DNA of 64,000 nucleotides, from IMG/VR virus record IMGVR_UViG_3300031656_000001; one strand, written 5' to 3'. The DNA is from a virus. The position numbers and the translations under genes were made by a program. The notes below the pieces were generated by a model. That model saw only the letters and a list, made by a program, of their open reading frames with translations, had not been told where the DNA came from and did not search any database. How positions within the stretch are numbered: the first letter of the stretch is position 1; every line of letters begins with the position of its first letter. Shown piece by piece: positions 37,705 to 53,682 of this stretch.

Positions 37705-38214
37705 TTACTTAGCTGACCAGACGTCTTTTAACTCGTCGATCTTCTTATTATAAGATTCTTTCATACCATTAAGTATTGCGTCATATGTTTCAATAGTAAG
37801 TTCTTCTTCACCTTTAATCTCAGCGTGTGCTTGTTCTAATGTAGAAGCAGCTAATGTTGCAATTAATGCAGCATTTTCTTTAAGATAAGATTCTAATGTG
37901 TGATCAGGATAATCATCCCCGTCATAGTCACATGCTTCTTTAATAGCAGATTCATAACCTTCTATTAAACGTGCAGAAACCGTTAATGTTTCTTTATCTT
38001 CATCTTCTTCCTCAGATTCTTCTTCAGATTCAGACTCTTCAGCATCCTCTTCTTTTTCTTCTTCTTCGCCTTCTATTTTTTCATGTTCTTCTGATTCTGA
38101 ATCCTCGTCAGAAATACCTAACACTTTGTCATCGTCGGTTTCCGTAATCGCATCAGTACTTGCAAGTTTCTTATTTGCTGCGTACTCTTCGAATGATAAT
38201 ATTGGTTTTGCCAT
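37705..38214 (-). CDS. Highly acidic protein, possible internal head/core protein
   Basis: Glu-rich tract; N-terminus MAKPILSFEEY resembles the shared leader; late-type motif at 38235-38245. Confidence 0.55.
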   Translation of the reverse strand: MAKPILSFEEYAANKKLASTDAITETDDDKVLGISDEDSESEEHEKIEGEEEEKEEDAEESESEEESEEEDEDKETLTVSARLIEGYESAIKEACDYDGDDYPDHTLESYLKENAALIATLAASTLEQAHAEIKGEEELTIETYDAILNGMKESYNKKIDELKDVWSAK

Positions 38215-38245
38215 AATGTTTTTATTATTATTTTATTTATATATC

Positions 38246-38926
38246 TTATTTTGTAGCCTTTTGTTTTTTCTTGGCTGTTTTCAGTTTAGATTTTAAACCG
38301 ATTTGTTGTTTTTGAACTGCAGCTTTCATACCATCTGCCGATGCTTGCTGTAGTTGAGACTTTAACAATAAACCTTGTAATTTATCAGTAGGATCCTTTT
38401 CTTTATCTTTAGAAAGTGCAGCTATGTCTCCTTTAATATCTTTTGATTTTGAAGAAAGACTCTTTTGTTTTTTAGTCAAAGCCTTTATCTTTTGTTTGTC
38501 AGATTTAGGTTTGCTCTTTTTCTTTTCTTCTATTATACCTTCTTCTAATGTATCTATTTCTTTTGATCTAGCCATTGCCCAATCAACTCCTGCATCTCCT
38601 CCCCAAATTAGCCATGAAACAAAACCTTTATCTAACCATGGTGTTTCTTTAAATTCAGGTGCAATAGTTGCATTTTTTCTATGTCTATTAAATGAAGACA
38701 TTCTTTTTACAGTATCGCTAGATATGTTTTCTCCATTAGCCAATTGATGTGCTCTTGCCCATCCGACTGCAGTACCAGCTTCAACTTCTTCTCTGCCATA
38801 TTTCTCTTTCCAGTCTATTGCTTTTTGTGCATTCTTTTTAGCAGCTTGAGGATAGTCACTATGTGAATCTTCAGCTTCATTAATTCTACTTAATAAGAAT
38901 TCTTCGAATAGTTTAATTCTTTTCAT
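38246..38926 (-). CDS. Putative internal head protein with Lys-rich C-terminus
   Basis: Leader MKRIKLFEEF; central RAHQLA...TVKRMSSF..RH...WGG domain; basic tail. Confidence 0.55.
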   Translation of the reverse strand: MKRIKLFEEFLLSRINEAEDSHSDYPQAAKKNAQKAIDWKEKYGREEVEAGTAVGWARAHQLANGENISSDTVKRMSSFNRHRKNATIAPEFKETPWLDKGFVSWLIWGGDAGVDWAMARSKEIDTLEEGIIEEKKKSKPKSDKQKIKALTKKQKSLSSKSKDIKGDIAALSKDKEKDPTDKLQGLLLKSQLQQASADGMKAAVQKQQIGLKSKLKTAKKKQKATK

Positions 38927-38927
38927 A

Positions 38928-39275
38928 TTATTTTGGTAATCTTACCATTGTTTCTTTAGTTTCATTCTTAAATGTATTCTTAACAAACCCGAATTCTTTA
39001 TAAAATGTTTTAAGTCTATTTACTGAAGTCGCTCCAAAATCTTTAGAAGGTGTTAGATAAATCTTTTTATTTGCATTATCAGCAAAATCAACAATTCTTT
39101 CCATTACTTTAGAACCAATTCCAGAACCTCTCAGTTCTTTAGGAACTACAATGCGCGAAAGCGCTAACCATTTACCATTATCATAAAGGTCTAATTTTAT
39201 ATTGAATTCAGTTTCTAATTCCTGAAGAATCATACCTTCATTTATAAAATCTTCAAATACTTTAATATGTCTCAT
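38928..39275 (-). CDS. GNAT acetyltransferase with shared leader
   Basis: IVVPKELRGSGIGSKVM acetyl-CoA motif A and FYKEFGF; probable start MRHIKVFEDFINE at 39275. Confidence 0.75.
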   Translation of the reverse strand: MRHIKVFEDFINEGMILQELETEFNIKLDLYDNGKWLALSRIVVPKELRGSGIGSKVMERIVDFADNANKKIYLTPSKDFGATSVNRLKTFYKEFGFVKNTFKNETKETMVRLPK

Positions 39276-39276
39276 G

Positions 39277-39693
39277 TTATTCACCGTATATTCTTTTTAC
39301 GAATCTTTTAATATCTGCATTACTATAATCCAATAATTCACCAATCTCTCTTGCTTCTTCAGCAGTCTTATCTGCTAAATATCCACCATGTGAATCTGCA
39401 ATTTCTTTTAATCGTTTTGCTTTCTTTTTACCAGTCGAGTTTGGTCTATATGCAATATATGCATCTCCGTCCTCTTTATCAACTGTCAATACGCCCCAGC
39501 CCATATCTCTATATGTTTGTAAGATTCGTATATCGTCTTCACTGTTAACCATAGGATGTTTAGTAACAAGAAAATGAATATCTTTTTTACCATCCATCAC
39601 TTGTTTGAAAAGCCAATCCTCAGTATAACCACCAGACGTTGGTAATGTTATCTTCTCATTTATAAAATCGTTGAATACTTTAATGTGCTTCAT
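39277..39693 (-). CDS. Hypothetical protein with shared leader
   Basis: Probable start MKHIKVFNDFINE at 39693; C-terminal IGELLDYS motif. Confidence 0.6.
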   Translation of the reverse strand: MKHIKVFNDFINEKITLPTSGGYTEDWLFKQVMDGKKDIHFLVTKHPMVNSEDDIRILQTYRDMGWGVLTVDKEDGDAYIAYRPNSTGKKKAKRLKEIADSHGGYLADKTAEEAREIGELLDYSNADIKRFVKRIYGE

Positions 39694-39694
39694 A

Positions 39695-40390
39695 TTAGAA
39701 TTTAGGTATACCACCTATTTTTTTAGCTCTTCGTCTCCATAATGTTAATACTTCCTCACGTGAAGTTCCATCAATCGTACCACTTTGTTCTTGTGTGTCT
39801 AAATACCTGGTGACTGCGTCGATCATTGATTCCTTTCTTTTCTTAGATTCAAATCTAAGTCCTTGTAAATTTGCATCAACTTCTTTAGGTAACATTAAGT
39901 ATTGTGCCTTCGGCATAACTCCTAATTCTATCAGCGCTCTTAATTCAGAGTCATCTTCATTCGGTTTACCCTTTCTATAATTACCGGTGTCTTTTCCGTC
40001 TTGTGTAATGTGTTCCATTTCATGTCGAATAACATCTGCTAAATACATGTAAACCTCTGACCATTCTCCTGGTAACCAATCTGGATTAATAACAAAATCT
40101 ATATTGATAAATGGTGTTTGAAAATCTCCATCGTCATCTTCATCTCTACCATCTGCACCTGTTGAATTAGCTATTTCAAATCCTTTGGTCTTTTTAGTAA
40201 TATGAAGTGTAGCTGTAAGATCAAATTCTAATTTATCCTCAATTTGATCAGAGTAATCTATGGTTGTCATTCCATTGGCATGTCCTTTAATCCACGCTTT
40301 GAATACCACGCTTGTTAATTTGGATGCTAGTGAATCCCATTTACTTCGACTCTCGTTCAAAAATAAGTTATATGTTTTTATGTGTTTCAT
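39695..40390 (-). CDS. Putative zinc metallopeptidase (HExxH) with shared leader
   Basis: IRHEMEHITQ plus downstream EVDA; leader MKHIKTYNLFLNE. Confidence 0.6.
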   Translation of the reverse strand: MKHIKTYNLFLNESRSKWDSLASKLTSVVFKAWIKGHANGMTTIDYSDQIEDKLEFDLTATLHITKKTKGFEIANSTGADGRDEDDDGDFQTPFINIDFVINPDWLPGEWSEVYMYLADVIRHEMEHITQDGKDTGNYRKGKPNEDDSELRALIELGVMPKAQYLMLPKEVDANLQGLRFESKKRKESMIDAVTRYLDTQEQSGTIDGTSREEVLTLWRRRAKKIGGIPKF

Positions 40391-40391
40391 G

Positions 40392-40402
40392 TATTATATA
40401 TC
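40392..40402 (-). promoter_or_regulatory. Late-type promoter motif GATATATAATA
   Basis: Recurrent upstream of structural and leader-bearing genes; other copies at 180, 8001, 21881, 23217, 32041, 38235, 50488, 53734 and 62202. Confidence 0.65.
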
Positions 40403-40404
40403 AT

Positions 40405-40436
40405 AAAAAAAGGGGAATGATTTCTCAGTCCCCTTT
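40405..40436 (-). terminator. Intrinsic terminator
   Basis: AAAGGGGA..TCCCC stem followed by T7 on the minus strand. Confidence 0.75.
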
Positions 40437-40456
40437 GGTTAGTATTTGTAGGTTAA

Positions 40457-40702
40457 TTATTCGTTAAGCGGACCAGATGGTCCAACAGCTTCTTTGTCAT
40501 CTGCTGTTACAAAAATAGAATCTAATGTGGCTAAATATCCATTTGCATCTGATATCGTTCTAATTAATTTGTCCATTTCGTCAATGATCTGTGGATGTTC
40601 TCCAATACCTATTGCATTTTTAGAATAAACTTCTAATGTTGCAACAGCTTCTAATCTCATTGCGATATACTTTGCGCGTAGCGCATCTAATTTCAAACTC
40701 AT
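40457..40702 (-). CDS. Conserved small phage protein
   Basis: LEVYSKNAIGIGEHPQIIDE resembles a common small protein of T4-like marine phages. Confidence 0.6.
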   Translation of the reverse strand: MSLKLDALRAKYIAMRLEAVATLEVYSKNAIGIGEHPQIIDEMDKLIRTISDANGYLATLDSIFVTADDKEAVGPSGPLNE

Positions 40703-40711
40703 AATTATCGT

Positions 40712-40915
40712 TTATTGTTTATTGTTTTTTCTTAATTCATCTATGATTTCTTGTAATCCTCTAAATGCAATTGCGGCCATTGCAAAAAACCAAAAGTCCT
40801 TTGTACTCCAATTTAATACTGCAAATAGCCAAAACAAATTAGAATTCATCCCCATTACGTGTTGATCACAATGTGCCAATATTTTCTTTGCTACTCTTTT
40901 AATTGTTTTAAACAT
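40712..40915 (-). CDS. Small membrane protein
   Basis: Likely start MFKTIKR (40915), just downstream of the class II motif at 40931-40957; hydrophobic segment. Confidence 0.5.
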   Translation of the reverse strand: MFKTIKRVAKKILAHCDQHVMGMNSNLFWLFAVLNWSTKDFWFFAMAAIAFRGLQEIIDELRKNNKQ

Positions 40916-40963
40916 ATTTTGTAATTTATTATTATACATTAATTTTTTTAAATGTTTCAAATA

Positions 40964-41167
40964 TCAATCTTCGTCCTTTAGTTTACGTATCATTGCACTT
41001 ATATAATTAAAAATAAATGCAGCACAATAAAGAGGCCATAATATAGCAAACAAAACACGCTGAGCCATATCAAGCCTAAGCTCTTCTTTTTTTATATAAG
41101 AAACAACACCATCATAAATGGCATTAAATAATATGCCTAACGATAAGTAATAAAATAAATTCATCAT
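40964..41167 (-). CDS. Small membrane protein
   Basis: Two hydrophobic segments; ILWP motif. Confidence 0.55.
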   Translation of the reverse strand: MMNLFYYLSLGILFNAIYDGVVSYIKKEELRLDMAQRVLFAILWPLYCAAFIFNYISAMIRKLKDED

Positions 41168-41172
41168 GTATA

Positions 41173-41204
41173 TTATACTTAAGAATCAGAAACTGTTTCT
41201 TGTT
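41173..41204. repeat. 32-bp direct repeat, copy 1 (contains most of a class II promoter motif)
   Basis: ttatacttaagaatcagaaactgtttcttgtt, identical to 42151-42182. Confidence 0.9.
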
Positions 41205-42117
41205 CAAACTGTTTCAAATATTTTTTAAGTGCTAACTCTTTAGCTTTAGCTTCCAATTCAATATCTAGAAATAAACCATAAGTGTCAATATATTCATATA
41301 TGTAATCTGAATGTGCACGTTTATTTGTTTGCTCTTCGTTCTCGTGAATCATTTGACAACTAGAATAATGTACAAGTTGTTTAATACCAACTGGCCATGT
41401 CAGGCTTGCTAATTTAAGTGCTTCTTCCTGTGTTAATTCACCTGAATGACACCAATGGTGATGATAGTCAAATGTAACAGGAACTCCTATTTTATTCCAA
41501 ATACCTTGATAAAGATCCTCTGTTGTGTATTGGCTTTCTTTGTCATCGTTTTCTACTACTAATCTTTTACGAACAGATTCGTCTAGTAATTCAAATGCAT
41601 CACAGAAGCGTTGCATTGCTTCGTCTTTTCCACCTTGTGTAGTATTGACATGTATGTTAATAGGTGCAGAGTGATCTCTTGGTAATTCCAAAAGATCCAT
41701 GATTTCACCATGTTTATTAAGATCTATAATACATTTGTCTACAACTCGCTGTGTAAGAGATGCCAATACATCGAATGGTCCAGGATGAAATGTCAAACGT
41801 TGACCGTTATCCATTGCTATTTTTCCAGCACCTTTTAATATATTCTTTATTTTTTTATAATCTGGCAAATCACATAAATTGTATTCGCTCATCCATGGAA
41901 ACATATCAGAACTTATGCGAAAAAGTTTAATATCGTTAGCATTATTCCATGAAACTATTTTAACTAAATCCTTAACATTTAATAATGCTAATTCAGAAAC
42001 ATAATCTATACCCTTACTTGCGAACGTTCGTTTGATCATACCTCTATTAGTAGTAATCTTGTCAGCTTTTTGAAGAGTAGTATTAATGCAACAATACCCG
42101 TAATTATTGGTTTCCAT
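41179..42117 (-). CDS. uvsE: UV damage repair endonuclease UvsE/UvdE
   Basis: GYCCIN, LFRISSDMFP, RLTFHPG, RLVVENDD, VTFDYHHH, AHSDY and LEAKAKE motifs. Confidence 0.92.
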   Translation of the reverse strand: METNNYGYCCINTTLQKADKITTNRGMIKRTFASKGIDYVSELALLNVKDLVKIVSWNNANDIKLFRISSDMFPWMSEYNLCDLPDYKKIKNILKGAGKIAMDNGQRLTFHPGPFDVLASLTQRVVDKCIIDLNKHGEIMDLLELPRDHSAPINIHVNTTQGGKDEAMQRFCDAFELLDESVRKRLVVENDDKESQYTTEDLYQGIWNKIGVPVTFDYHHHWCHSGELTQEEALKLASLTWPVGIKQLVHYSSCQMIHENEEQTNKRAHSDYIYEYIDTYGLFLDIELEAKAKELALKKYLKQFEQETVSDS

Positions 42118-42150
42118 TGAATTTAGTTTTTAAATATTTATAAATAAATG

Positions 42151-42182
42151 TTATACTTAAGAATCAGAAACTGTTTCTTGTT
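42151..42182. repeat. 32-bp direct repeat, copy 2 (contains most of a class II promoter motif)
   Basis: Identical to 41173-41204. Confidence 0.9.
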
Positions 42183-42537
42183 TTATTTTAAACAACTCAT
42201 AATTACTATTCCCTGTTTTGAATTTAAAATAGTCCTCACGTTGCTCTAGGATTTCCGTTACTGGAGTTGTTTGCCATGTAAAACTATCATCAAACGGTGA
42301 CATGACCAAGCTACGATTCAATCCAATTTCTTCAAACTGATCTTTAAATGTACTGTCCTTGTTCCATTCTATCCAAATAACAGCACGCGAGATCTTCGTT
42401 AAGTTATCACGTTCTCTGACTAATTTCCAGTTCTGCTCTTTTTCTTTATAAAAAAGTTCTGCAAAATCTGCGTTGATTACAAGATTACCGTCGTCATTTA
42501 TGTCGACTAATATCTTTTTTTGTACTCCGCCTATCAT
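42157..42537 (-). CDS. Hypothetical phage protein
   Basis: 126 aa; WQTTPVTEI...FKTGNSNYEL motif. Confidence 0.6.
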   Translation of the reverse strand: MIGGVQKKILVDINDDGNLVINADFAELFYKEKEQNWKLVRERDNLTKISRAVIWIEWNKDSTFKDQFEEIGLNRSLVMSPFDDSFTWQTTPVTEILEQREDYFKFKTGNSNYELFKIKQETVSDS

Positions 42538-42540
42538 AAT

Positions 42541-42960
42541 TTATGTTTTTTGTTGTGGTAACCATTCCACGTTAATAAGGTCTCTGACAACAGCCCTGAA
42601 TTCTGCAATGCCCTGTTTATTAAACATAGTATTTGCTTCAACCATTGATTCGCTATCATTTTCTAAAACGCCAATCATCCAACGTGCATTATCTAAGTAT
42701 TCTTCTTTCCATGGTTTAGTACGTTTATCAGTGACTTCAATCGAGCACTGATCATCATACGGTGTACCATCTTCTTGTAAAATACGAGTAGCTTCGAATG
42801 CATAATCATCTGTTTCATAAGTTCTACCATCATATGATGTAACTTCTAGTTCTGCGCTCTCTTGATGATTTATGTTAGCTATTGCTAAACTGATTTGTTC
42901 TAGTTCCTCTAGATTAAATTCAGCTTTATTAATTGCTTTTATTATTTTTAAGTGTTTCAT
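42541..42960 (-). CDS. Hypothetical protein
   Basis: 139 aa ORF. Confidence 0.55.
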   Translation of the reverse strand: MKHLKIIKAINKAEFNLEELEQISLAIANINHQESAELEVTSYDGRTYETDDYAFEATRILQEDGTPYDDQCSIEVTDKRTKPWKEEYLDNARWMIGVLENDSESMVEANTMFNKQGIAEFRAVVRDLINVEWLPQQKT

Positions 42961-42970
42961 AATTTATATT

Positions 42971-43438
42971 TTAAAAATTACCCGGTGCAACTTGCATACA
43001 AGTCAATCCATTATCTCTCCACATCTTAACGACTTTATCTCTGTCATCAAATACACATAAGATATCTGTTTTATCAGGGAACAAATCGTCTAACCATCCT
43101 TGTTTTAACTTGTCATCTGGCATAAATCCGAATTCGTTACCAGTCGGCCTCATTTTAAGTACATCAAATGGTACATCAAATTTATCTAACCAATCTCTAG
43201 TAGCATCTTTAGTCGCTTTACTTCTACCACTAAAAATAACAATTCTATGTCCATCTGCTTTTAACAATTGGGCCATTTTAATTACTGAGTGATTTGGTAC
43301 ATCTAAGCTAATGTTCTTAGGATCAAAGAAAATGTCCCAGTTAATTTTACCATCTGGCTTAGTTGCCAATACTCGTCTTTTATCAATTATTGCTAGAGTT
43401 CCATCTAGATCAAAAATTACTGATTTTTTATTGTTCAT
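42971..43438 (-). CDS. HAD phosphatase resembling the polynucleotide kinase (PseT) 3'-phosphatase domain
   Basis: FDLDGTLA, FSGR, LKMRP..D, FDDRDKVVKMWRDNGL..QVA.GNF. Confidence 0.85.
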   Translation of the reverse strand: MNNKKSVIFDLDGTLAIIDKRRVLATKPDGKINWDIFFDPKNISLDVPNHSVIKMAQLLKADGHRIVIFSGRSKATKDATRDWLDKFDVPFDVLKMRPTGNEFGFMPDDKLKQGWLDDLFPDKTDILCVFDDRDKVVKMWRDNGLTCMQVAPGNF

Positions 43439-43452
43439 TTTTATTTTTTAAA

Positions 43453-43674
43453 TTATTCATCTTCTCCTGTACCGAATGCATCTAACCATTCTTTAGGTGT
43501 AATACCTGAAATTAAAAACTCTCTTTCATCTGAACTTAAATCAGGAAATGTATTTTGTACTAACTCTCCGTTATCGTATTTTACCAATTGCTCAGACGTT
43601 ATATCTAATTCCATGGTATTTGTTTTACCCGACAATTGTGATTGTTTTGTAATTTTCATAGTCTTATAGTTCAA
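43453..43674 (-). CDS. Conserved small phage protein
   Basis: LVQNTFPDLSSDEREFLISGITPKEW motif. Confidence 0.6.
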   Translation of the reverse strand: MNYKTMKITKQSQLSGKTNTMELDITSEQLVKYDNGELVQNTFPDLSSDEREFLISGITPKEWLDAFGTGEDE

Positions 43675-43891
43675 AGTTTTCTTGTAATTCTTTAATTAAC
43701 GTTTTGATCTCTTCTTTATTAAGAGCAATGTGTGTAAAGAATTTACCTTGATCTGTAGTTCTCATTGTTAATTGAACTTTCATACCTTCTTTACCACCAC
43801 TAAATCTTGTTAGTGACATTGTTGTGTTTTCCATTTCATTAGTTCTTTCGCTATGAAATTGTCCTTTTAATGTTTTTAATTCTGTTGACAT
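43664..43891 (-). CDS. Small hypothetical protein (putative early gene)
   Basis: 75 aa, directly downstream of a class I motif. Confidence 0.55.
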   Translation of the reverse strand: MSTELKTLKGQFHSERTNEMENTTMSLTRFSGGKEGMKVQLTMRTTDQGKFFTHIALNKEEIKTLIKELQENFEL

Positions 43892-43915
43892 GACTTTAAG
43901 TTTTTAATTATACTA

Positions 43916-43946
43916 CTAATATACAACTTTTATTTGACATAAAAAA
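43916..43946 (-). promoter_or_regulatory. Class I (early, host-RNAP-like) promoter repeat
   Basis: Minus strand TTTTTTATGTCAAATAAAAGTTGTATATTAG; near-identical copies at 44183, 45205, 49845 and 51445. TATATTAG resembles the Bacteroidota -7 element TAnnTTTG. Confidence 0.65.
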
Positions 43947-43958
43947 GCTTTTATGCGT

Positions 43959-44159
43959 TTATTTTTTTGTGATTGACTGAAAATCGAAGATGTATCCTTT
44001 AAGTGCATTTAACTTTGAGTCAATTTCATCAGAAGTTAAAAAGCCTTTTTCGATTTGAAGATCTGAAAGATTACTTGCAACTCTTGATAATACATCGTTA
44101 GATGTTAATAGATCCGCTGATCTTTCTCCGTACTTTGTGCTAAATGCTTCTTTTGTCAT
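43959..44159 (-). CDS. Small hypothetical protein (putative early gene)
   Basis: 66 aa, between two class I motifs. Confidence 0.55.
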   Translation of the reverse strand: MTKEAFSTKYGERSADLLTSNDVLSRVASNLSDLQIEKGFLTSDEIDSKLNALKGYIFDFQSITKK

Positions 44160-44182
44160 GACTTTATCTTTTAGTTATACTA

Positions 44183-44214
44183 CTAATATACAACAATTTA
44201 TTGATATAAAAAAA
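44183..44214 (-). promoter_or_regulatory. Class I promoter repeat
   Basis: ctaatatacaacaatttattgatataaaaaaa variant copy. Confidence 0.55.
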
Positions 44215-44278
44215 TCCTAGCTAAAAAAGTTACGAACAATTTCACTAGGATTTATAATATTGTAATAATTAGATTTCA

Positions 44279-44512
44279 TTACTGTAATGATTCTATCTTT
44301 AAATTAAGTGTCGTTTCTAATTCTAGTTGACTTGTCTTTAAATAATCTGACTGTATTTCGTTTGCACATGATATTGTGCTATTGAATCTTTTCAAGTTTT
44401 TAATATATTCTTTTGCACCTCTAAGTTGTATTAGATTTGTACATGATGAAATCACTCTGCCAGCTTTCTTGTAATTATCAAAAATCGATGATGTGTTTTC
44501 TTTGAAGTCCAT
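44279..44512 (-). CDS. Hypothetical protein
   Basis: 77 aa ORF. Confidence 0.55.
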   Translation of the reverse strand: MDFKENTSSIFDNYKKAGRVISSCTNLIQLRGAKEYIKNLKRFNSTISCANEIQSDYLKTSQLELETTLNLKIESLQ

Positions 44513-44513
44513 A

Positions 44514-44966
44514 TTAATTAACGTTTAAATATTTAAGTACACTTTCCCAGTTTGGATGTGCTTCAGTACCGAATTGAATAAGTTCACCTTTAAATTCACC
44601 TGCACCGTTTGCTGTTCTATCATCAATTAGATATTCTCCAATCATAAGATTTTTGTGGTGGCTTGTGATTAAACGCTTGTAAGCAGGTTTACCTAAATAC
44701 TTTTGTACCCATTGTTTTTTTGCTTTGACAGCGCCGATGCTCTTCCAAGGTGCAGAGGTTAATAGATATACATCAAACACCTTAACTAATTTATTGAAAG
44801 CTTCAATTGCACCGGGCATCGGTACAGCTTCATAAAATAATTCAGGATCTTCATCCAACAAATCACCAATACTTGAAACTGATTCAGGTCCATATTTATC
44901 GGTACATGCTTTGAATATGTCTACGAGGACACCATCCATATCTAAGTACATTATCTTTTTTGCCAT
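44514..44966 (-). CDS. 5'(3')-deoxyribonucleotidase (NT5C family HAD)
   Basis: YLDMDGVLVD, PMPGAIEA, KKQWV, HKNL..GEYLIDDR; probable start MAKKI at 44966. Confidence 0.88.
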   Translation of the reverse strand: MAKKIMYLDMDGVLVDIFKACTDKYGPESVSSIGDLLDEDPELFYEAVPMPGAIEAFNKLVKVFDVYLLTSAPWKSIGAVKAKKQWVQKYLGKPAYKRLITSHHKNLMIGEYLIDDRTANGAGEFKGELIQFGTEAHPNWESVLKYLNVN

Positions 44967-44967
44967 A

Positions 44968-46459: not shown

Positions 46460-46494
46460 GTATTTCTAATTTAATAGTTATACATGAATCCAAT
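46449..46494 (-). promoter_or_regulatory. 14-bp perfect inverted repeat covering the rnhB start codon, overlapping a class II promoter (46477-46503)
   Basis: attggattcatgta (46449-46462) / tacatgaatccaat (46481-46494). Confidence 0.6.
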
Positions 46495-46503
46495 GAATTG
46501 TTT

Positions 46504-47202
46504 CTAAAATTTAGATTCGTTTTCAGATTTCCATACGTCATATCTTTCTACAACTTCTTGTAAAATCTTAGCACGTACAATATCTTTGTTACCGAATATG
46601 TGTACACCTACGCCTTTAACACCATCTAATATACCTATAAAATTAGGTAAACTAACATGCTTTCTAGTAATATCGTGTTGGCTTACATCTCCTGTGATTA
46701 ATACCTTACTATCTCTACCCATTCTTGTTGTGAATAACATAAGTTGTTTAAACGATGCATTTTGTGCTTCATCTAAAATCATTAATGAGTTGTCAAATGT
46801 ATCACCTCTCATATATGCTAATGGTTCAAATCTAATTGTTTTACTATCGAATAAAAGTTTTGCTTGAGTAACTCCGATAATTTTAGTAATATTGGAAATA
46901 TATGAATTCATATATGGATCCATCTTTTCTTCCTTAGTTCCTGGTAAAAAACCTAATTTCTCACCAGCTTCTTGTATTGGTTTACAAAGAATGATTTCTT
47001 TGATCTTTTTTTGTTGTAATAATTTAAGTGCTACGAAACATGCTGTAAATGTTTTAGAAGTTCCTGCTGGTCCATAACAAAATGTTATTTCGTTTTCTTC
47101 TATTTGTCTTACATATTGTTGTTGGGATTGTCTAAGAGTAACTCGCTTTAAGCTAGTTTCAATTGTACCCGCCTTTTCTTTTCTTCCGTTTCCTTTTGTC
47201 AT
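46504..47202 (-). CDS. phoH: PhoH-family ATPase
   Basis: GPAGTSKT, LGFLPG, PLAYMRGDT, ILDEAQN and GDVSQHD motifs. Confidence 0.93.
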   Translation of the reverse strand: MTKGNGRKEKAGTIETSLKRVTLRQSQQQYVRQIEENEITFCYGPAGTSKTFTACFVALKLLQQKKIKEIILCKPIQEAGEKLGFLPGTKEEKMDPYMNSYISNITKIIGVTQAKLLFDSKTIRFEPLAYMRGDTFDNSLMILDEAQNASFKQLMLFTTRMGRDSKVLITGDVSQHDITRKHVSLPNFIGILDGVKGVGVHIFGNKDIVRAKILQEVVERYDVWKSENESKF

Positions 47203-47229
47203 ATATTATAAATTTAAGTTATACTGTGT

Positions 47230-47490
47230 TTAGTCACCTGCCATTATGACAAGTTCTTTTAGCTTCATTAACTTTGTACATTTCTCGTATTCTTCTAGCG
47301 ATTCAAAATACTTAACCATTAGGTCAATAAATTTACTGCGCTGTTTAATACCATGAGGTATCTCAACGATACGATCACTGTCTTTAAATGCTATGAAGCG
47401 ATTTACTGTTTTGGTGAAGTTTCTAGTTATTTGATAATAACTAGCTCTCATCAAGCTATCTTTGTCTGAGTTGGAAATAAACCCTGCCAT
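47230..47490 (-). CDS. Small protein with C-terminal UVR-like motif
   Basis: YFESLEEYEKCTKL. Confidence 0.55.
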   Translation of the reverse strand: MAGFISNSDKDSLMRASYYQITRNFTKTVNRFIAFKDSDRIVEIPHGIKQRSKFIDLMVKYFESLEEYEKCTKLMKLKELVIMAGD

Positions 47491-47620
47491 CTTAATATTG
47501 GTATATTTTGGGGAACTTGTAGTTTAATACTACTCGTTCTCATTTGTATATATTAATTAAAATATTTATCTAAATCACAATTTTAAGTATGTAATATTAG
47601 GATATTTTATTAATATGTTA

Positions 47621-47803
47621 TTAAGAATGTTCTTTGGTTTGTAAATATTTAGCCTTTTGATGCTTTAGGCGATTTTTAGCCGATGGCTTGATAAAATTCT
47701 TTAGTTCTCTTAGTTTTTTTAATTGTTTAGTTTTAATAACTTTTCTTTTATATTGCTTTAATGCTTTGTCTATATTACCTTTATTAACTTCAATTATTAA
47801 CAT
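47621..47803 (-). CDS. rpsU: 30S ribosomal protein bS21 (phage-encoded)
   Basis: MLIIEV..NIDKALKQYKRKV.KT....LR....FIKPS...R....KAKYLQ closely follows the Flavobacterium-type bS21 pattern. Confidence 0.88.
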   Translation of the reverse strand: MLIIEVNKGNIDKALKQYKRKVIKTKQLKKLRELKNFIKPSAKNRLKHQKAKYLQTKEHS

Positions 47804-48063
47804 ACGAGTTTTATTTGTTTTTTTATATTTAAAATTTTAGTACACTTTTCGAATTCTTCTTTGGTTTCGAAATAATCTAACATTGCGCCTAATATTACGT
47901 TTTTGCGATCAGTTGCTAAGTCAGATGCTATTACATATGTAGGGTGACTTGTCATTGCCATATATAACGCATTAAAAAATAAGTCTTCATCATTAACTAT
48001 AATTCCATCGATTATAGGAAACCATGGTTTATCATTAATATCACTGGAGAAATAGTCTTTCAT
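47797..48063 (-). CDS. Small protein with C-terminal UVR-like motif
   Basis: MLDYFETKEEFEKCTKI. Confidence 0.55.
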   Translation of the reverse strand: MKDYFSSDINDKPWFPIIDGIIVNDEDLFFNALYMAMTSHPTYVIASDLATDRKNVILGAMLDYFETKEEFEKCTKILNIKKQIKLVC

Positions 48064-48854
48064 ATTGTGTTCTTTACTTTCTCTATATATTCCAGTTGTT
48101 CGTCATTAAGTTCAGAATATCTAGAATTTAATTTGCATAAAAGAGCACCTTTTTTACCAGTACCATATATTGGATAGCCTCTATCTTTAATTCTAAGTGA
48201 TTTACCAGGGTAACTGTTTTTAGGAATGTTAATAGAGATCTCACCATCCGGTGTATTTACATTCACTTTAGTTCCTAAGAATATATCATACCAATCCATA
48301 TTCAATTCTATCCAAATATCATTGTCTTGTAAAATCCATTCTGAATTATGAATGACATGTACATTTATGATTAGATCGCCATTAGGAAGAGTGCTATTAT
48401 ATTGATGAGGTTGACCTTTACCAGGAACTCTTAGCTTCATGCCTGTTTTTAGACCAGGTTTAAAATCTATTTTAATCTCTTGGCCATTAATAGGAAATTG
48501 TTTTGAGGTACCAGAATACGCTTCGTCGAAACTGATATGTAAATCTAATCGAACGTCTAATCCTTTAGGTGCTCGTTGTGGGTTGAAAGCATTGCCGAAA
48601 ACTTGATCAAACATGTCTGCCATATTAAAATTGGCATCAAATCCTGAGAAGTTCTGATAATTACCGACGTTGTCATATTCTTCCCTAGAAGACTCGGATC
48701 CTATCTTTTCATATGCTTCAGCAATCTCTTTGAATTTAGCATCAGCGCCATCGTTCTTATCTGGATGATGCTCCTTAGCTAGTTTACGGTACGCTTTCTT
48801 TATATCGTTTTGAGTAGAACTTTTATCTACACCTAATACGTTATACGGATCCAT
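48060..48854 (-). CDS. dnaJ: DnaJ/CbpA-type co-chaperone (no zinc finger)
   Basis: J domain with HHPDKN, G/F region and DnaJ C-terminal domain. Confidence 0.88.
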   Translation of the reverse strand: MDPYNVLGVDKSSTQNDIKKAYRKLAKEHHPDKNDGADAKFKEIAEAYEKIGSESSREEYDNVGNYQNFSGFDANFNMADMFDQVFGNAFNPQRAPKGLDVRLDLHISFDEAYSGTSKQFPINGQEIKIDFKPGLKTGMKLRVPGKGQPHQYNSTLPNGDLIINVHVIHNSEWILQDNDIWIELNMDWYDIFLGTKVNVNTPDGEISINIPKNSYPGKSLRIKDRGYPIYGTGKKGALLCKLNSRYSELNDEQLEYIEKVKNTI

Positions 48855-48860
48855 AAAAAT

Positions 48861-49067
48861 TTAGTCTAAGTTGGGTGAAACGTGTGTTACTTTTTCTGGA
48901 TCTATAGATACCTTTTCTCTAAGATCAGCTCTAAGATTCTTTTCTTGTAGTTTTTCTAAAACAGCAGTTCTTTTTTCAGCAACTTCGCTATTCTTATTAG
49001 ATTTTTCTAGAGCATCTGCTATTCTTTTTAATTGAACAACTAACTCTTTTGTAATTTTATCTTCCAT
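48861..49067 (-). CDS. Small coiled-coil protein
   Basis: 68 aa; LKRIADALEK. Confidence 0.5.
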   Translation of the reverse strand: MEDKITKELVVQLKRIADALEKSNKNSEVAEKRTAVLEKLQEKNLRADLREKVSIDPEKVTHVSPNLD

Positions 49068-49821
49068 GTCTATTCTTTACTAAGTCTGACTCACCGTTTT
49101 GAAAATCTTGGTAAGGCAATGATTTATCTTTTTGGCCAGCGTGTGGGCCGTTTACCATTATAGTGTCTTTATACGGATTTGTTTCACCGTCTAGGCCCTG
49201 TTCTTTTAGTTTACGACTCAACCAAGAATGCATATCTTCTAACTTTCCGTTAAAGTGTCTGATTCTTTCTAGATCTGAATTCTCACTAGCAAAATCCTCA
49301 TACAATTTAATGTACTTCATTTTGTTTTGGTGGGATTCTTTAATATTTAATACGGATTTGATAGCATCTATGAATACTGATTCTGGTACTCTATGTCCAC
49401 CATTGTATTTTGTGTGATAAAAACTACCTGAACCGATGTGCCCAAAGTATCTCATTACTTGTTCACCATTTATAACAGTATCGCTTTTCCCTAGGTATAC
49501 ATTGTGAGTAGTACCGAAATTTAATCTTGTATCATCTACTACGGGGTCAAACGTCCTATCAACAACTGCTGGGTTAAATAGAAGAGTTTCTATTCCAAGC
49601 TTACTCCCAATCAAATACGCAACATATCCACCCATAGATGATCCTACGATTAAATCTGGTTTTAGTTGTTTAATTGATGAATATAATTTATCAAATGTTT
49701 TTTTATTTCTATATGCAATTGATGGAGCAAATACTTCATCAAACGTTTCTCTTAAGAATATGATCTTAGGGTCTTTTTCGTCTATGCTAGATTCTAAACC
49801 GTGTAAATATGCTATCTTCAT
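49057..49821 (-). CDS. YqiA-like alpha/beta hydrolase with C-terminal extension starting with the shared leader
   Basis: YLHGLES, VGSSMGG, FNPA, D and H triad residues; internal MKYIKLYEDFASE at 49320. Confidence 0.75.
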   Translation of the reverse strand: MKIAYLHGLESSIDEKDPKIIFLRETFDEVFAPSIAYRNKKTFDKLYSSIKQLKPDLIVGSSMGGYVAYLIGSKLGIETLLFNPAVVDRTFDPVVDDTRLNFGTTHNVYLGKSDTVINGEQVMRYFGHIGSGSFYHTKYNGGHRVPESVFIDAIKSVLNIKESHQNKMKYIKLYEDFASENSDLERIRHFNGKLEDMHSWLSRKLKEQGLDGETNPYKDTIMVNGPHAGQKDKSLPYQDFQNGESDLVKNRHGR

Positions 49822-49844
49822 TTCTAATCTTTATTATTATAATA

Positions 49845-49876
49845 CTAATGTACAACTAATGTTTGACATAAAAAAA
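49845..49876 (-). promoter_or_regulatory. Class I promoter repeat
   Basis: ctaatgtacaactaatgtttgacataaaaaaa variant copy. Confidence 0.55.
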
Positions 49877-49892
49877 CATTTGCTGAATTAGT

Positions 49893-50486
49893 TTAAACTT
49901 TAGGTCTACCTATAAGTACTTTATTGTGATATGATCCTCCTAGTTTTCTAGAATACCAACCATTTCCTAATTCACCTTCTATATTTCCTAACCACTCAAT
50001 CTTTTTGCCTAGAACCTTTTCCACTGCAGCATGATCTGAAACAACTGGCACATTATATTTACCAATTAAAATGTCTGCGATTTTACCAGAAACTTCTATA
50101 TAGAATCCTGGTCTATTAAGATCCCTGCCTCTTGCTGTTATATAAGCTCTCTTTGCAGGTTTTGATCCATCGTGACCAACTCCAGAATACTTAACTCCGA
50201 ATTTAGTTTTCTTTCCAAACATTACCATATCAAAATCTTCATCTCCGTGTATGTCTAATCCTTCCCAGTAATTCCAATCAGGATCTGCGAATACATCATC
50301 TGGTGATTTGATTTTTGCATGTCCTCCGATTTCTGCATATGCAGTTGCTATTAAGTCATAGAATTCTCCAGACAATTCAGGATGTTTCGTATGATCAAAC
50401 TTTGTAATCTTACCTCTTTTAGGATTAAAGAGTTCACCACTTGATTTCTCATTGGTAAATTCTTCAAATAATTTAATGTGTTTCAT
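49893..50486 (-). CDS. Putative internal head protein with shared leader
   Basis: MKHIKLFEEFTNE leader; late-type motif at 50488-50498. Confidence 0.6.
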   Translation of the reverse strand: MKHIKLFEEFTNEKSSGELFNPKRGKITKFDHTKHPELSGEFYDLIATAYAEIGGHAKIKSPDDVFADPDWNYWEGLDIHGDEDFDMVMFGKKTKFGVKYSGVGHDGSKPAKRAYITARGRDLNRPGFYIEVSGKIADILIGKYNVPVVSDHAAVEKVLGKKIEWLGNIEGELGNGWYSRKLGGSYHNKVLIGRPKV

Positions 50487-50501
50487 ATATTATATATCTA
50501 A

Positions 50502-51041
50502 TTAAAGATCGCTATGCGATTTTAGGTTATTTTCTTTCTTAATCTCTAGTTTTAATCTCTTAAGTGAATACAGAAACCCATGTATCGCTAAACAAAGTAA
50601 TGCAATTACCTCATACCAAAAGAGTGTTATTATTGGTATTAAAGCTGCACAAAATATTATTGGAATTCCAATATATCTGTATCGTTTATCATTAACAATA
50701 CTATACGTTGCAGATAAAAAGAATCCGTATGCAAACAAATTGTGTAATATCATATATTCATGTGTGTCGAATATTGCGACACCAATCAAAAATAAACCAG
50801 TAATTATATTTTCACTTAATATAAAACTTAAAGATATTATTAATAGGCTATATGTTAATATGTCCGTGGCGGCAGTGCCGTGATACGAGCTGAATGAGTG
50901 TTCCATTGTACCTGTTTTAAGATACAACGCCAATGGTAATAAAACCGTCAGTGAAGAACATATTAAATTGAATAATAGACCTAGTTTTTTCACCTTTTTG
51001 AATCTGTTTTTTTGTTTATCTATCGGCTTTATATTTATCAA
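50502..51041 (-). CDS. Multi-pass membrane protein
   Basis: About six hydrophobic helices; SFSSYH and LHNLFA motifs. Confidence 0.6.
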   Translation of the reverse strand: MINIKPIDKQKNRFKKVKKLGLLFNLICSSLTVLLPLALYLKTGTMEHSFSSYHGTAATDILTYSLLIISLSFILSENIITGLFLIGVAIFDTHEYMILHNLFAYGFFLSATYSIVNDKRYRYIGIPIIFCAALIPIITLFWYEVIALLCLAIHGFLYSLKRLKLEIKKENNLKSHSDL

Positions 51042-51042
51042 T

Positions 51043-51071
51043 AAAAAAGCCCATACGTTTCCATATGGGCT
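51043..51071 (-). terminator. Intrinsic terminator
   Basis: AGCCCATA..TATGGGCT stem plus T-tract on the minus strand. Confidence 0.75.
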
Positions 51072-51097
51072 AATTAATTTTCACTAATTTGTAATAT

Positions 51098-51427
51098 TTA
51101 AATTCTTTCTGTAGATCTGTTTTTTTCAATACTATAAATGATCATAAGCTGATCTCGTATCACTGTACATTTTTCATATTCTTCTAACTCTATGAAGTAG
51201 TCCAACATGGTATCGAACGTTTTCTTGAGATCGGTAAGTTTATCATCATCTAACATTCTAAGATGCCACGCACTGATACCGTTTATGGATATTTGATCAT
51301 AATTAGATTCTATCGCCATGGATATCATCCTTTCTTTGTGCTCTTCTAATTTAATTTTAAAATTAGAATCACTATTTTCCATGAACTCATCAAAGTCAAA
51401 GTCTTCATCGTCGTTTGTATATTCCAT
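51098..51427 (-). CDS. Acidic protein with C-terminal UVR-like motif
   Basis: MLDYFIELEEYEKCTVIRDQL. Confidence 0.6.
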   Translation of the reverse strand: MEYTNDDEDFDFDEFMENSDSNFKIKLEEHKERMISMAIESNYDQISINGISAWHLRMLDDDKLTDLKKTFDTMLDYFIELEEYEKCTVIRDQLMIIYSIEKNRSTERI

Positions 51428-51444
51428 ATCTTTTATTTATTCTA

Positions 51445-51475
51445 CTAATATACCACTAATATTTGACATAAAAAA
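51445..51475 (-). promoter_or_regulatory. Class I promoter repeat
   Basis: ctaatataccactaatatttgacataaaaaa. Confidence 0.6.
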
Positions 51476-51480
51476 GCTTT

Positions 51481-52221
51481 TTAGCTATTATTTTCAATTA
51501 TATTCATATTAGATATTTTTAGCATAATGTTTGCGGTAGCTTGAATATCTTTTTCGCAGTATGTTTTAATCTCTTCAAGTCTGTCATTCCAATAATATTC
51601 ATTTACTTCTGGACCTGACATTGCATCCTTAGGTGAAGGAATCCCTAATAGTTCTGATATCAATCCTAATTTAGCAGAATTCCAACCACCAAACTTCCAA
51701 ACGTCTTGTGTATCTAATAGACAATTCTCCCATGGTTTTTGTTTATGTAAATGAAATGCAGTCGGAACTGTGTTGCCGTTTATTAGTGATCTTTTGATAA
51801 TATATGGCAAATCAAAACCTTTTATGTTATGACCAACCCATTTCATTCTAGGATACTTCTGCATGATCTTGGTCGCTGTCTGAGAAAAATCCTTAAGTAG
51901 TTTACTCTCATCTGTCCCGTGGTAAGACGCAGCTTTAAATGCAACTGGAAATCCTGTTTCATCAAACTTTAATTGTCCCATAGAAATACAAACAATTCTA
52001 CCCCATTCTGGATATAGTCCTGCCATACGTGACCACATTTTATGCGGATCATCGAAACCTTTAAGTGTTTCCGGCTGTGCTTCCATTAATTGACTAGTCT
52101 TTAAATTCCAATACTCTTCGAGCGCTGGGTTTTCATCAATCACTTCTTGAAATGTTTCTTTCTGTGTGCTTGTTTCGATGTCTACGAAGATCATCTGTTG
52201 TAATTCGCTTAATGTATACAT
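51481..52221 (-). CDS. 3'-5' exonuclease (DEDD, PolB-exo-like)
   Basis: FVDIET, VGHNIKGFDLPY and YCEKD ExoI/II/III motifs. Confidence 0.88.
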   Translation of the reverse strand: MYTLSELQQMIFVDIETSTQKETFQEVIDENPALEEYWNLKTSQLMEAQPETLKGFDDPHKMWSRMAGLYPEWGRIVCISMGQLKFDETGFPVAFKAASYHGTDESKLLKDFSQTATKIMQKYPRMKWVGHNIKGFDLPYIIKRSLINGNTVPTAFHLHKQKPWENCLLDTQDVWKFGGWNSAKLGLISELLGIPSPKDAMSGPEVNEYYWNDRLEEIKTYCEKDIQATANIMLKISNMNIIENNS

Positions 52222-52247
52222 ATATTATCCTTTAATCCTTTAAACCT

Positions 52248-52277
52248 AAAAAACGTCTAATGGTTAGATTAGACGTT
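52248..52277 (-). terminator. Intrinsic terminator adjoining a class II promoter (52279-52305)
   Basis: AACGTCTAA..TTAGACGTT stem with T-tract. Confidence 0.6.
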
Positions 52278-52428
52278 CTTTATATGTGATTTTTTAAAAT
52301 TGTTTATTTCTTTCTAGTAATAAACGCTTTAATAAATTGACCGACTATACCTAAAAAGGTGTCTGATCTGTACTTAGTTCCTTTATGATTTAAAAGAAAT
52401 GCTTTTAATGTTTGTTGTTTTTTCATAA

Positions 52429-52671
52429 TTATTGATTTATCCAACCTGGAGCTTCGTCCCAATTTCGATTAGAAGATAAATGAGAATAAGAGTCATATGT
52501 CAATGAAATCATTACGTATCCACCAGTAATTGAAGTGGGTACTGATGCTTCGTTAAGCCAGTAATATGGTGCAGCGTTGATCCTCATATTTAAGAAGTCG
52601 AATAACTCATCAACTTGCATATGGTGAACCCACACATTTATAATCATACAATTCATATTAGCTTCTGCCAT
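52429..52671 (-). CDS. Hypothetical protein
   Basis: 80 aa ORF with A-rich leader. Confidence 0.5.
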   Translation of the reverse strand: MAEANMNCMIINVWVHHMQVDELFDFLNMRINAAPYYWLNEASVPTSITGGYVMISLTYDSYSHLSSNRNWDEAPGWINQ

Positions 52672-52728
52672 AATTTTTATTATTAAGTTCTATTTATCTT
52701 TAATTAAAATGGAATTTATCCAAGTTTA

Positions 52729-53682
52729 TTATTTTTCTACACTAAATCTATCGCCACCGTCTAATTTAATTGATTTCTCAAGCATAAAATCAGCAAGCTC
52801 TTTCAATTTAGCATCTGTTTTTGCATCCACCACTCTTCCATAAAAATCTTCAAACAATGTTCTATAGATATCTACAGTAGAATCAAATGGTACACCTGGC
52901 ATCGAGTTCGACTCAATGATATACAGCTTTCCTTTTTGATCTTCCATAACATCGAAACATATATAAGGTAAATCCGAAAACATTTTTCCGAATTTAGCCA
53001 TTAATTTGTTAAATTTATCTGGAGTTTTTGATACATCTTTTTTAATGTAATTAAACATCATCTTCTCTTTGTCGTCACCATCGCCAGTTTTAGCTTTGTC
53101 ATTTGTAGGCTGTCTCTCTTGCCAAAAGAAAGGCTTTCCTTTAAATGTAAAAAACCTATGTTCACTCTTCTTATCAATGTACTGCGAATATACATCTAAT
53201 TTAGAATGATCTGCCGCGTCAAAGTCTTCTTGATTTTTAATTACTGTAATACCCAAACCAGAATGTCCTTCAGATGGTTTAGCAATCATTGGAAATCCAA
53301 TTTCTTTAACTGCATCTTCTGATTTATGAATAGTCTTTGGGATGTTTTCATCACCATCAACTATTTTGTGAAATTCTGCTTTAGATCCCGAACTCTTAAT
53401 GAATTCTGGTCTATTATATACATTTTCTGCTTTGATTAACTTCTTGTCTAATAATGTTTGTACAACATCACTATTATATGTTAAGACTGGAAAGTTCTTG
53501 TCAATATCAATATCCTTATAATTTTCAGGTGTAAGTCTAATGAAAAACTTATCAGCAGCGAAATCCTTATAAGACCAAAATCTATGGCCTAAATCTGGAT
53601 TATACGCTAAGTATATTTTATTTAAATCTTGGGGTTCTTCCGCTTCATTTAGAAAATCTTCAAAGAATTTAATTCGTTTCAT
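52729..53682 (-). CDS. ATP-grasp ligase (RimK-like) with shared leader
   Basis: FPMIAKPSEGHSGLGI, SQYI...EHR, FDV and IIESNSMPG motifs; leader MKRIKFFEDFLNE. Confidence 0.8.
   Translation of the reverse strand: MKRIKFFEDFLNEAEEPQDLNKIYLAYNPDLGHRFWSYKDFAADKFFIRLTPENYKDIDIDKNFPVLTYNSDVVQTLLDKKLIKAENVYNRPEFIKSSGSKAEFHKIVDGDENIPKTIHKSEDAVKEIGFPMIAKPSEGHSGLGITVIKNQEDFDAADHSKLDVYSQYIDKKSEHRFFTFKGKPFFWQERQPTNDKAKTGDGDDKEKMMFNYIKKDVSKTPDKFNKLMAKFGKMFSDLPYICFDVMEDQKGKLYIIESNSMPGVPFDSTVDIYRTLFEDFYGRVVDAKTDAKLKELADFMLEKSIKLDGGDRFSVEK

Follow-up and report, generated by a model that had tools for sequence, protein, structure and literature searches.

Genes with a shared N-terminal leader

The stretch of DNA analysed here (the window, 64,000 nucleotides (nt)) is the reverse complement of bases 282–64281 of the 149,989-bp IMG/VR virus record IMGVR_UViG_3300031656_000001, and it carries a set of genes whose otherwise unrelated proteins share a short N-terminal leader. 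Window coordinates are given below as w (in the feature lists, without a letter) and coordinates of the genome record as g. The record is classed as linear and is ~53% complete according to CheckV, and nearly all of its genes lie on one strand, corresponding to the minus strand of the window. The window and the genome record differ at two bases, 2815 and 4003; no N is involved. The genes in question are the following, where "next residue" denotes the residue that follows the last Glu of the leader.

52729–53682, minus strand: ATP-grasp enzyme, 317 residues; leader MKRIKFFEDFLNE, next residue A
49893–50486, minus strand: 197-residue protein; leader MKHIKLFEEFTNE, next residue K; 313 homologues
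49057–49821, minus strand: 254-residue open reading frame (ORF); UPF0227 (YqiA-type) esterase domain, internal leader MKYIKLYEDFASE with next residue N, then an 80-residue module
39695–40390, minus strand: HExxH protein, 231 residues; leader MKHIKTYNLFLNE, next residue S; 404 homologues
39277–39693, minus strand: 138-residue protein; leader MKHIKVFNDFINE, next residue K
38928–39275, minus strand: GNAT acetyltransferase, 115 residues; leader MRHIKVFEDFINE, next residue G
38246–38926, minus strand: 226-residue two-module protein; 17-residue leader MKRIKLFEEFLLSRINE, next residue A, followed by a DYP module (residues ~18–134) and a Lys-rich basic module
37705–38214, minus strand: acidic protein, 169 residues, starting MAKPILSFEEY; a longer leader variant, MAKPILSFEEYAA...AITE, of ~25 residues, next residue T

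Six of these genes begin MK(H/R)IKx(F/Y)(E/N)x(F/Y)..NE, with leaders of 13–17 residues. The domains downstream of the leaders are unrelated and comprise ATP-grasp, GNAT, HExxH and others without assigned function. A preliminary description of this DNA had listed seven such N-termini, including the weaker one of the acidic protein, and all seven are present on the minus strand; the internal, in-frame copy in the esterase ORF (w49320–49282) was absent from that list.

All six frames of the genome record were scanned with the strict motif, which matched 12 times on the coding strand and never on the opposite one. Of these matches, ten follow directly after a start Met, one is the in-frame internal copy and the last is a chance match out of frame. 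The 11 copies in 173 proteins compare with a mean of 0.001 in 2000 per-protein shuffles, a frequency far above chance. Furthermore, the pattern [FYW]xx[FYW][ILVMT]xE, which retains the key positions alone, occurs 10 times within the first 26 residues of the proteins against 0.7 expected, and is not enriched in protein interiors (10 observed, 8.2 expected). These statistics exclude chance as the origin of the leader. Four of the strict copies lie outside the window, at g82859, g95512, g96267 and g96605, and looser versions of the leader start at g69918, g77149, g81834, g110912 and g114992.

The leader codons vary synonymously (TTT/TTC, GAA/GAG, CAC/CAT, AAA/AAG, CGA/AGA, TTA/TTG/CTA) and the DNA upstream of the leader genes is unrelated between genes, so the conservation acts at the level of the peptide.

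Outside the window, three tandem small acidic paralogues of 94–103 residues (g95512–96889) each start MKHVKLFEAF..(V/I/L)NE. The DNA upstream of these paralogues (acaaaacaaaacaatt) is also conserved, and the first of them lies behind the octamer GATATATA described below.

Resemblance to the T4 capsid-targeting signal

The internal proteins IPII and IPIII of phage T4, translated from NC_000866, both start MKTYQEFIAE followed by A, in agreement with the preliminary description. The N-terminal 10 residues of IPIII are enough to bring it into the capsid; within them, targeting is determined mainly by residues 4 and 7 and processing by residues 8 and 10 (PMC9026906).

Counted from the Glu, the window leaders have F or Y at position −7, F at −4, I or L (once T) at −3 and E at −1, so that the cleavage-type sites read LNE, TNE, LNE, INE, INE and INE. 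The exception at −3 is a Thr in the protein starting at w50486, and the orthologues of this protein carry I, L or V at that position. By this alignment on the Glu, all four determinant positions mapped in T4 are kept in the window leaders.

T4 offers further likenesses. IPI, IPII, IPIII and Alt, which are otherwise unrelated, also begin with a short propeptide; it has these same four determinant positions and is 10–19 residues long, compared with 13–17 and once ~25 residues here. The protease, portal and capsid protein are homologous between the two phages, and the tagged genes of T4 are likewise scattered outside the head cluster. The T4 cargo also includes an enzyme, Alt, which provides a precedent for injected enzymes; the tagged internal proteins and Alt are ejected and act in the host.

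The two phages also differ. The leader of the present phage has three additional residues behind the initial MK (MKHIK.. versus MKT.. in T4) and usually ends in Asn-Glu, with Asn at −2. There are 10 to more than 20 tagged genes per genome in this lineage and about five in T4, and the predicted cargo includes GNAT, ATP-grasp, esterase and HExxH proteins, is partly multi-module and has one internal leader. The predicted cargo set is thus larger and more enzymatic than that of T4. In addition, the protease is the N-terminal part of a fusion with a long scaffold-like region, marine Bacteroidota are the probable hosts, and the system is known from sequence alone. That T4-like phages can use the capsid-targeting sequence to load a variety of proteins is already part of the T4 literature (PMC9026906).

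The phage and its head genes

The best relatives of the capsid protein and of the Rad3-like helicase are metagenomic huge phages (LR756500, 51% capsid identity). They are followed by the Lak phages and Tenacibaculum phage PTm1, whereas T4-like cyanophages reach ~26% only. Judging from these relatives and from the marine samples, the record is a fragment of a deep-branching T4-related jumbo phage. Its hosts are probably marine Bacteroidota.

A T4-type head machinery is recognizable in the record. The start of a 686-residue protein (g111382–111720) matches Peptidase_S77 (PF03420, the gp21 family) with 47 bits against a cut-off of 27, and there is also a match to PHROG 207, head maturation protease, with an E value of 2e-34. 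The PTm1 homologue of this protein is annotated as "prohead core scaffolding protein and protease", and from this fusion we infer the scaffold part of the 686-residue protein. A Gp23-family capsid protein (161 bits) and a Portal_T4 protein (249 bits) are directly matched by Pfam.

The gene order is portal, 112-residue leader protein, protease–scaffold fusion, capsid protein and 522-residue leader protein. The 112-residue protein starts MKIIKTFEDFITE, has an acidic tail and occupies the slot between portal and protease where T4 has gp67/gp68. T4 gp67 is also small, with an acidic tail, and is encoded in the same genomic place. The arrangement is the same in a complete relative (G011), which has portal, a small protein containing MKKLIKTFEQFIFE, protease–scaffold and capsid protein. 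The window enzymes thus share their tag with the protein at the gp67 position, which, judged by this position, has to be part of the prohead core.

The capsid protein (g113482–114861) starts MNLLNE followed by AEI, and that of G011 (51406–49934) starts MAQLINE followed by AEI, which places a protease-type site at residue 6–7. The N-terminal 30 residues align with residues 4–33 of T4 gp23 at 3 bits only, an alignment too weak to place the maturation site, for which LNE6, INE25 and LYE43 are candidates.

The leader in related phages

IMG/VR was scanned with a back-translated pattern for MKHIKxFE(E/D)F, in which positions 11–13 play no part. At least 120 stretches with this pattern were found, encoding at least 102 distinct proteins. 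At least 76 of the leader proteins have unrelated downstream sequences, and the median length among the matches listed is 137 residues. Among these same matches, 43 of the 76 (57%) have [ILVMT]xE at positions 11–13, compared with a background of 2.1%. In a further 13, an [ILV]xE is reached no later than residue 24. The leader Glu is mostly followed by A, K, S, G or E.

The contigs that bear the leader are fragments of jumbo genomes, with 30–180 kb corresponding to a CheckV completeness of 8–64%. Of the leader-bearing records with a completeness of 40% or more, 12 of 13 contain Gp23, as do all three with a completeness of 90% or more. The near-complete relatives have 4, 11, 15, 21 and 21 leader starts, and none was obtained with reversed-pattern controls. 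The metagenomic phage LR756500 has 11 copies of the variant MKYIKEYEEF. The leader strings were not found in the literature searched, and a paper on similar aquatic Bacteroidota jumbo phages, the "moraphages", does not describe an N-terminal tag (PMC12619734).

To follow the leader within orthologous families, 22 sequences were aligned from each of two families, that of the HExxH protein (404 homologues) and that of the 197-residue protein (313 homologues). The leader drifts in both families, with MERIITFNDFLNE, MKTISNFEDFIVE and MNNIFNFTDFVNE as examples from the HExxH family. Both have an invariant Glu13 and keep the aromatic residue at −4, and in the HExxH family Phe10 hardly varies. Conservation of the mature part sets in no more than three residues after the Glu, with an invariant Arg15 in the HExxH family and nearly invariant Ser16 and Gly17 in the family of the 197-residue protein.

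Five of the tagged genes of the window form an island beside the helicase gene. This island, between the terminator-like hairpin and the dCMP deaminase and helicase genes, is syntenic in nine relatives and its content of tagged genes varies. A run of ~14 leader genes with mostly touching stop and start codons sits in the same neighbourhood, beside the Rad3-like helicase gene, in the complete relative G011 (C1:193196–200277, L157).

Motifs upstream of the leader genes

The octamer GATATATA is present 32 times on the coding strand of the genome record and is absent from the other strand, while related octamers are strand-symmetric. It precedes the gp2-like/portal, gp67-like, protease, capsid, neck, tail sheath and tail tube genes, and its distance to the start codon is either 18–100 nt or exactly 4 nt. 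The block of 43 non-structural genes at g9000–32000 contains only four copies, each heading a leader unit. These units are the ATP-grasp gene, the gene of the 197-residue protein, the operon HExxH/138-residue/GNAT/226-residue protein, with 1–2 nt between its genes, and the gene of the acidic protein. The upstream features are as follows.

53737–53744, minus strand: GATATATA motif, 54 nt upstream of the ATP-grasp gene
53707–53733 (w53733–53707), minus strand: AAAC-N17-TATAAC motif, between GATATATA and the ATG of the ATP-grasp gene
50491–50498, minus strand: GATATATA motif, ending 4 nt before the ATG of the gene of the 197-residue protein
40403–40437, minus strand: hairpin and U-run (−14.5 kcal/mol, z −3.8), a terminator-like insulator directly upstream of the cassette
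40395–40402, minus strand: GATATATA motif, ending 4 nt before the ATG of the HExxH gene, the first of the four-gene operon
38238–38245, minus strand: GATATATA motif, 23 nt upstream of the gene of the acidic protein, kept at 22–28 nt in 9 related contigs

These four leader units of the window stand behind GATATATA amid non-structural genes, at 54, 4, 4 and 23 nt, in line with the preliminary description. The 4-nt spacing is found in four leader genes (motifs at w50498, w40402, g69906 and g110900). It suggests either leaderless transcripts, with their 5′ end at the A of the ATG or beside it, or a motif that does something other than act as a −10 element.

A second motif, AAAC-N17-TATAA[TCA], occurs 21 times on the coding strand of the genome and once on the other. 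Within w37512–55634 it lies 2–57 nt upstream of non-structural genes, among them those of PhoH-like, RNase HII, UV-endonuclease-like and dCMP deaminase proteins.

Judging from the genes that it accompanies, GATATATA would be a late promoter. The late type first ascribed to it holds as a pattern, in that leader and structural genes share the octamer, and the leader genes may be expressed late with the head genes; the ATP-grasp gene also has the motif class of the non-structural genes. Across the IMG/VR relatives, 22 of 97 leader genes have GATATATA in the 150 nt before their start, compared with 8% of other ORFs. Upstream of the large cluster of leader genes in G011, AATATATA-like variants are present and the exact octamer was not found.

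Putative cargo proteins of the window

The ATP-grasp protein matches Dala_Dala_lig_C with 26.7 bits (cut-off 24) and CPSase_L_D2 with 25.2 bits (cut-off 19.8) in Pfam, and PHROG 2599, RimK-type. Several other ATP-grasp families match below their cut-offs, so the assignment is to ATP-grasp enzymes as a whole. Orthologues with the leader are present in two related contigs (L080 and L109). The GNAT protein matches Acetyltransf_7 with 32.0 bits (cut-off 27), Acetyltransf_1 with 27.1 (20.7) and Acetyltransf_10 with 26.3 (23.6), as well as positions 2689–2797 of the 3925-position profile of PHROG 10691. Both enzymes had been named in the preliminary description, and these profiles confirm the assignments.

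The third enzyme named there, a metallopeptidase, is less certain. His123, Glu124 and His127 of the HExxH protein are invariant in 22 homologues, and the AlphaFold2 (AF2) model, with a predicted local distance difference test score (pLDDT) of 85, places them in helix 110–128, behind a β-sheet. The leader forms a detached helix of low confidence (pLDDT 53–64) in this model. Pfam, a PDB profile search and Foldseek against the PDB (E ≤ 0.001) gave no match to a zincin or to anything else, and a wide VIA-align search, whose best Z of 5.4 concerned the C-terminal helices only, also gave no zincin. The invariant HExxH stands and makes this protein a hypothetical metallopeptidase, on the basis of that motif alone.

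The esterase domain of the 254-residue ORF (PF05728, 40.7 bits against a cut-off of 21) covers residues 3–97 and has no leader at its N-terminus. The 80-residue module that follows the internal leader stands alone, with an N-terminal leader, in a related contig (L046). Protein P0271, from another sample, consists of an esterase, an internal leader, a DYP module and a basic module; the order of esterase and leader therefore recurs and is not an assembly error.

In the 226-residue protein, the basic module begins after a ..GIIEE/KKKSK junction. The DYP and basic modules recur at 73–83% identity in hundreds of proteins of 400–1534 residues, many of which have PF19141. In the four polyproteins that were read, the modules are joined by ..ES(V/I)LNE, ..EFVNE and similar [LIV]xE sequences, and the basic module always comes right after the Glu. 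An Atlas structure search linked the DYP module, as a lead only, to domains that other phages carry in fusion with their portal and prohead-protease proteins. The Atlas suggestions DUF6321, DUF3721 and DUF5824 were rejected for this module, as PF19846 and PF12518 have no match in the genome at an E value of 10; PF19141, on the longer homologues, is the only family recorded for it.

The acidic protein resembles T4 gp67 in style. Its counterparts in nine related contigs keep M.KKILSFEEYAA and an [LIV]-x-E near residue 25. For the 197-residue protein, the AF2 model is poor (pLDDT 56) and a PDB profile search gave chance matches to antibodies only. The 138-residue protein has no match in Pfam or PHROG.

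Proposed loading pathway and alternative explanations

The arrangement of determinants, the T4-type head machinery, the leader at the gp67 position, the upstream motif shared with structural genes and the Glu site agree with one another. We therefore regard the shared N-terminus as a T4-type capsid-targeting propeptide, serving both targeting and processing, with a probability of roughly 0.7. At least seven unrelated proteins of the window would then probably be packed into the virion and delivered with the DNA. The targeting part of the preliminary description is strengthened by these data, and the host-directed role that it had added is held with less confidence.

In the proposed pathway, the cargo genes would be transcribed together with the head genes. 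The leader of 13–17 residues, with its aromatic residues at −7 and −4, would bind the cargo to the scaffolding core of the growing prohead, and the gp21-type serine protease would cut directly behind the Glu of its terminal [ILVT]-x-E. The same protease may also cut similar sites between the modules of multi-module cargo. The mature proteins, among them the ATP-grasp, GNAT and HExxH proteins, the esterase, the Lys-rich module, the acidic protein and several others, would then be free in the head, and most likely leave it with the DNA at infection. Core binding, cleavage, presence in the virion, ejection and action in the host are all steps that we infer.

Several observations weigh against this pathway. 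About a quarter of the tagged proteins in relatives, among the matches listed, have no [ILV]xE within 24 residues, and the leader pattern is absent from the cultured phages PTm1, PAU and MA9V-2 and from the metagenome-assembled Lak-A1. The internal leader of the esterase is not explained by T4 biology. As to transcription, the 4-nt spacing in four genes requires leaderless mRNAs or a role of GATATATA other than as a −10 element, and the octamer also precedes nrdB (ribonucleotide reductase small subunit, g92707), one clear gene that is neither structural nor leader-bearing. The ATP-grasp gene carries both GATATATA and the non-structural-type AAAC-N17-TATAA motif, and therefore may not be purely late. 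A run search found the stretch in 24 marine DNA runs and in 0 RNA runs, a result that says nothing on expression. Finally, with ~53% of the genome in the record, another partner of the tag may be encoded in the missing half.

Three other explanations were considered. The proteins could be targeted to the prohead and yet be of core or scaffold type, or act only in the head, where they would be degraded or retained instead of being injected as effectors. In favour of this, the leader is also found on the protein at the gp67 position and on the 522-residue protein next to the capsid gene, both structural-looking; the acidic protein is gp67-like in style, the Lys-rich module looks like a counter-ion for DNA, and the DYP module is, as an Atlas lead only, a structural look-alike of domains fused to portal and prohead protease in other phages. 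However, it is not obvious what a GNAT, an ATP-grasp ligase, an esterase or a conserved HExxH protein would do in a head filled with DNA, and the tagged proteins of T4 are ejected and act in the host, which makes this explanation unlikely in our view. We consider it somewhat less probable still that the leader is a tag for a different partner, such as a chaperone, a modifying enzyme as in systems that pair a tag with a radical-SAM enzyme, an unfoldase or degradation machinery, or another assembly. A full DnaJ is encoded in the same block (w48854–48060) and half of the genome is missing, but neither a Radical_SAM nor an AAA_2 (Clp-type) domain was found in the 150-kb record (~53% of a complete genome), and such a partner would leave the match to the T4 determinants, the Glu site, the leader at the gp67 position and the motif of the structural genes unexplained.

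The conservation could also serve the nucleic acid, the first 30 nt being either an initiation element of late genes with leaderless mRNAs or a recombination site for cassette shuffling. The four leader genes that start exactly 4 nt after GATATATA suggest leaderless mRNAs whose first codons could matter, and relatives differ in the content of the cassette beside the helicase gene, which would fit exchange promoted by a common 5′ sequence. Nevertheless, synonymous codons vary while the leader residues stay, the leader changes within orthologous families with its aromatic, aliphatic and Glu positions kept, and the internal copy in the esterase ORF is not at the 5′ end of an mRNA. These features make a role at the nucleic-acid level very improbable as the sole cause, and a recombination role could coexist with targeting.

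Beyond capsid targeting itself, we tentatively consider that the leader may be a portable, lineage-wide address label that also works internally, with whole chains of modules (esterase, leader and module; leader, DYP and basic module; polyproteins of up to 1534 residues) loaded and cut at [LIV]xE and with the island beside the helicase gene as a hot spot for swapping tagged enzymes. This extension is speculative and we would not yet expect it to hold in full. Were it to hold, the whole injected proteome of an abundant, uncultured lineage of marine Bacteroidota phages, 10–25 proteins per phage, would be readable from sequence alone, and the GNAT, ATP-grasp, esterase and HExxH proteins in it would act on host targets within seconds of infection.

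A tag that functions as in T4 would identify the proteins that uncultured marine jumbo phages carry in their virions. The GNAT, ATP-grasp, esterase and HExxH proteins, with many others, would then form a directly testable list of candidates for first-strike or anti-defence functions, and new phage functions directed at the host could be sought in the island beside the helicase gene. It would also mean that the T4 rule of aromatic, aromatic, aliphatic and Glu has survived a very deep split in the T4 superfamily, with a capsid identity of ~26–37% to other groups. The leader could, in that case, serve as a portable tag for loading foreign proteins into Bacteroidota phages.

Comparison with known packaged protein sets

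Phages phiKZ, 201phi2-1 and SPN3US contain many head-internal proteins whose propeptides are cut after Glu, at redundant sites, by diverged gp21 homologues (gp175, gp245) (PMC9026906; see also PMC5694885 and PMC10052503). They are jumbo phages with Glu-processed inner-body or ejection proteins, as proposed here. Apart from the Glu, the sequence around their cleavage sites reportedly contains very few determinants, and a short, portable N-terminal tag that can be recognized from sequence is not described for them. In contrast, the tag of the present phage is recognizable from its sequence, and its major capsid protein and portal directly match the T4 Pfam families Gp23 and Portal_T4.

The Dar system of phage P1 (DarA, DarB, Hdf, Ulx) consists of anti-restriction proteins that are loaded at head assembly and delivered with the DNA to protect it (PMC9024508, PMC12810830). 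It resembles the present proposal in that a set of proteins is loaded in the head and delivered with the DNA. Loading in P1 reportedly follows an ordered protein–protein dependency, and a shared cleavable N-terminal tag or a T4-type protease motif is not known there.

The protein set of the window also has a likeness to other delivered proteins in the architecture of its longer homologues, as the GNAT matches part of a 3925-position PHROG profile and DYP modules are found in proteins of up to 1534 residues. Polyvalent proteins (Iyer, Burroughs, Anand, de Souza and Aravind, 2017) are reportedly strings of unrelated enzymatic and binding domains, including acetyltransferases and zincin-like peptidases, that phages and conjugative elements deliver with their DNA. 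In contrast to these, most domains of the present set are separate small tagged genes, and the chained ones are joined at protease-type [LIV]xE sites. Among the window proteins, Pfam gave no match to an LPD or other polyvalent-protein family; LPD23 appeared only as an Atlas lead with a score of 0.86.

Other genes of the non-structural block

A full-length DnaJ, with a J domain and DnaJ_C, is encoded in the non-structural block, at w48060–48854 on the minus strand. The moraphages of aquatic Bacteroidota are described as frequently encoding a DnaJ (PMC12619734).

Three small paralogues of 86, 88 and 109 residues, none of which has a Pfam match, are encoded on the minus strand at w47230–47490, w47797–48063 and w51098–51427. 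They share the C-terminal sequence YF(E/I)xxEE(Y/F)EKCT.

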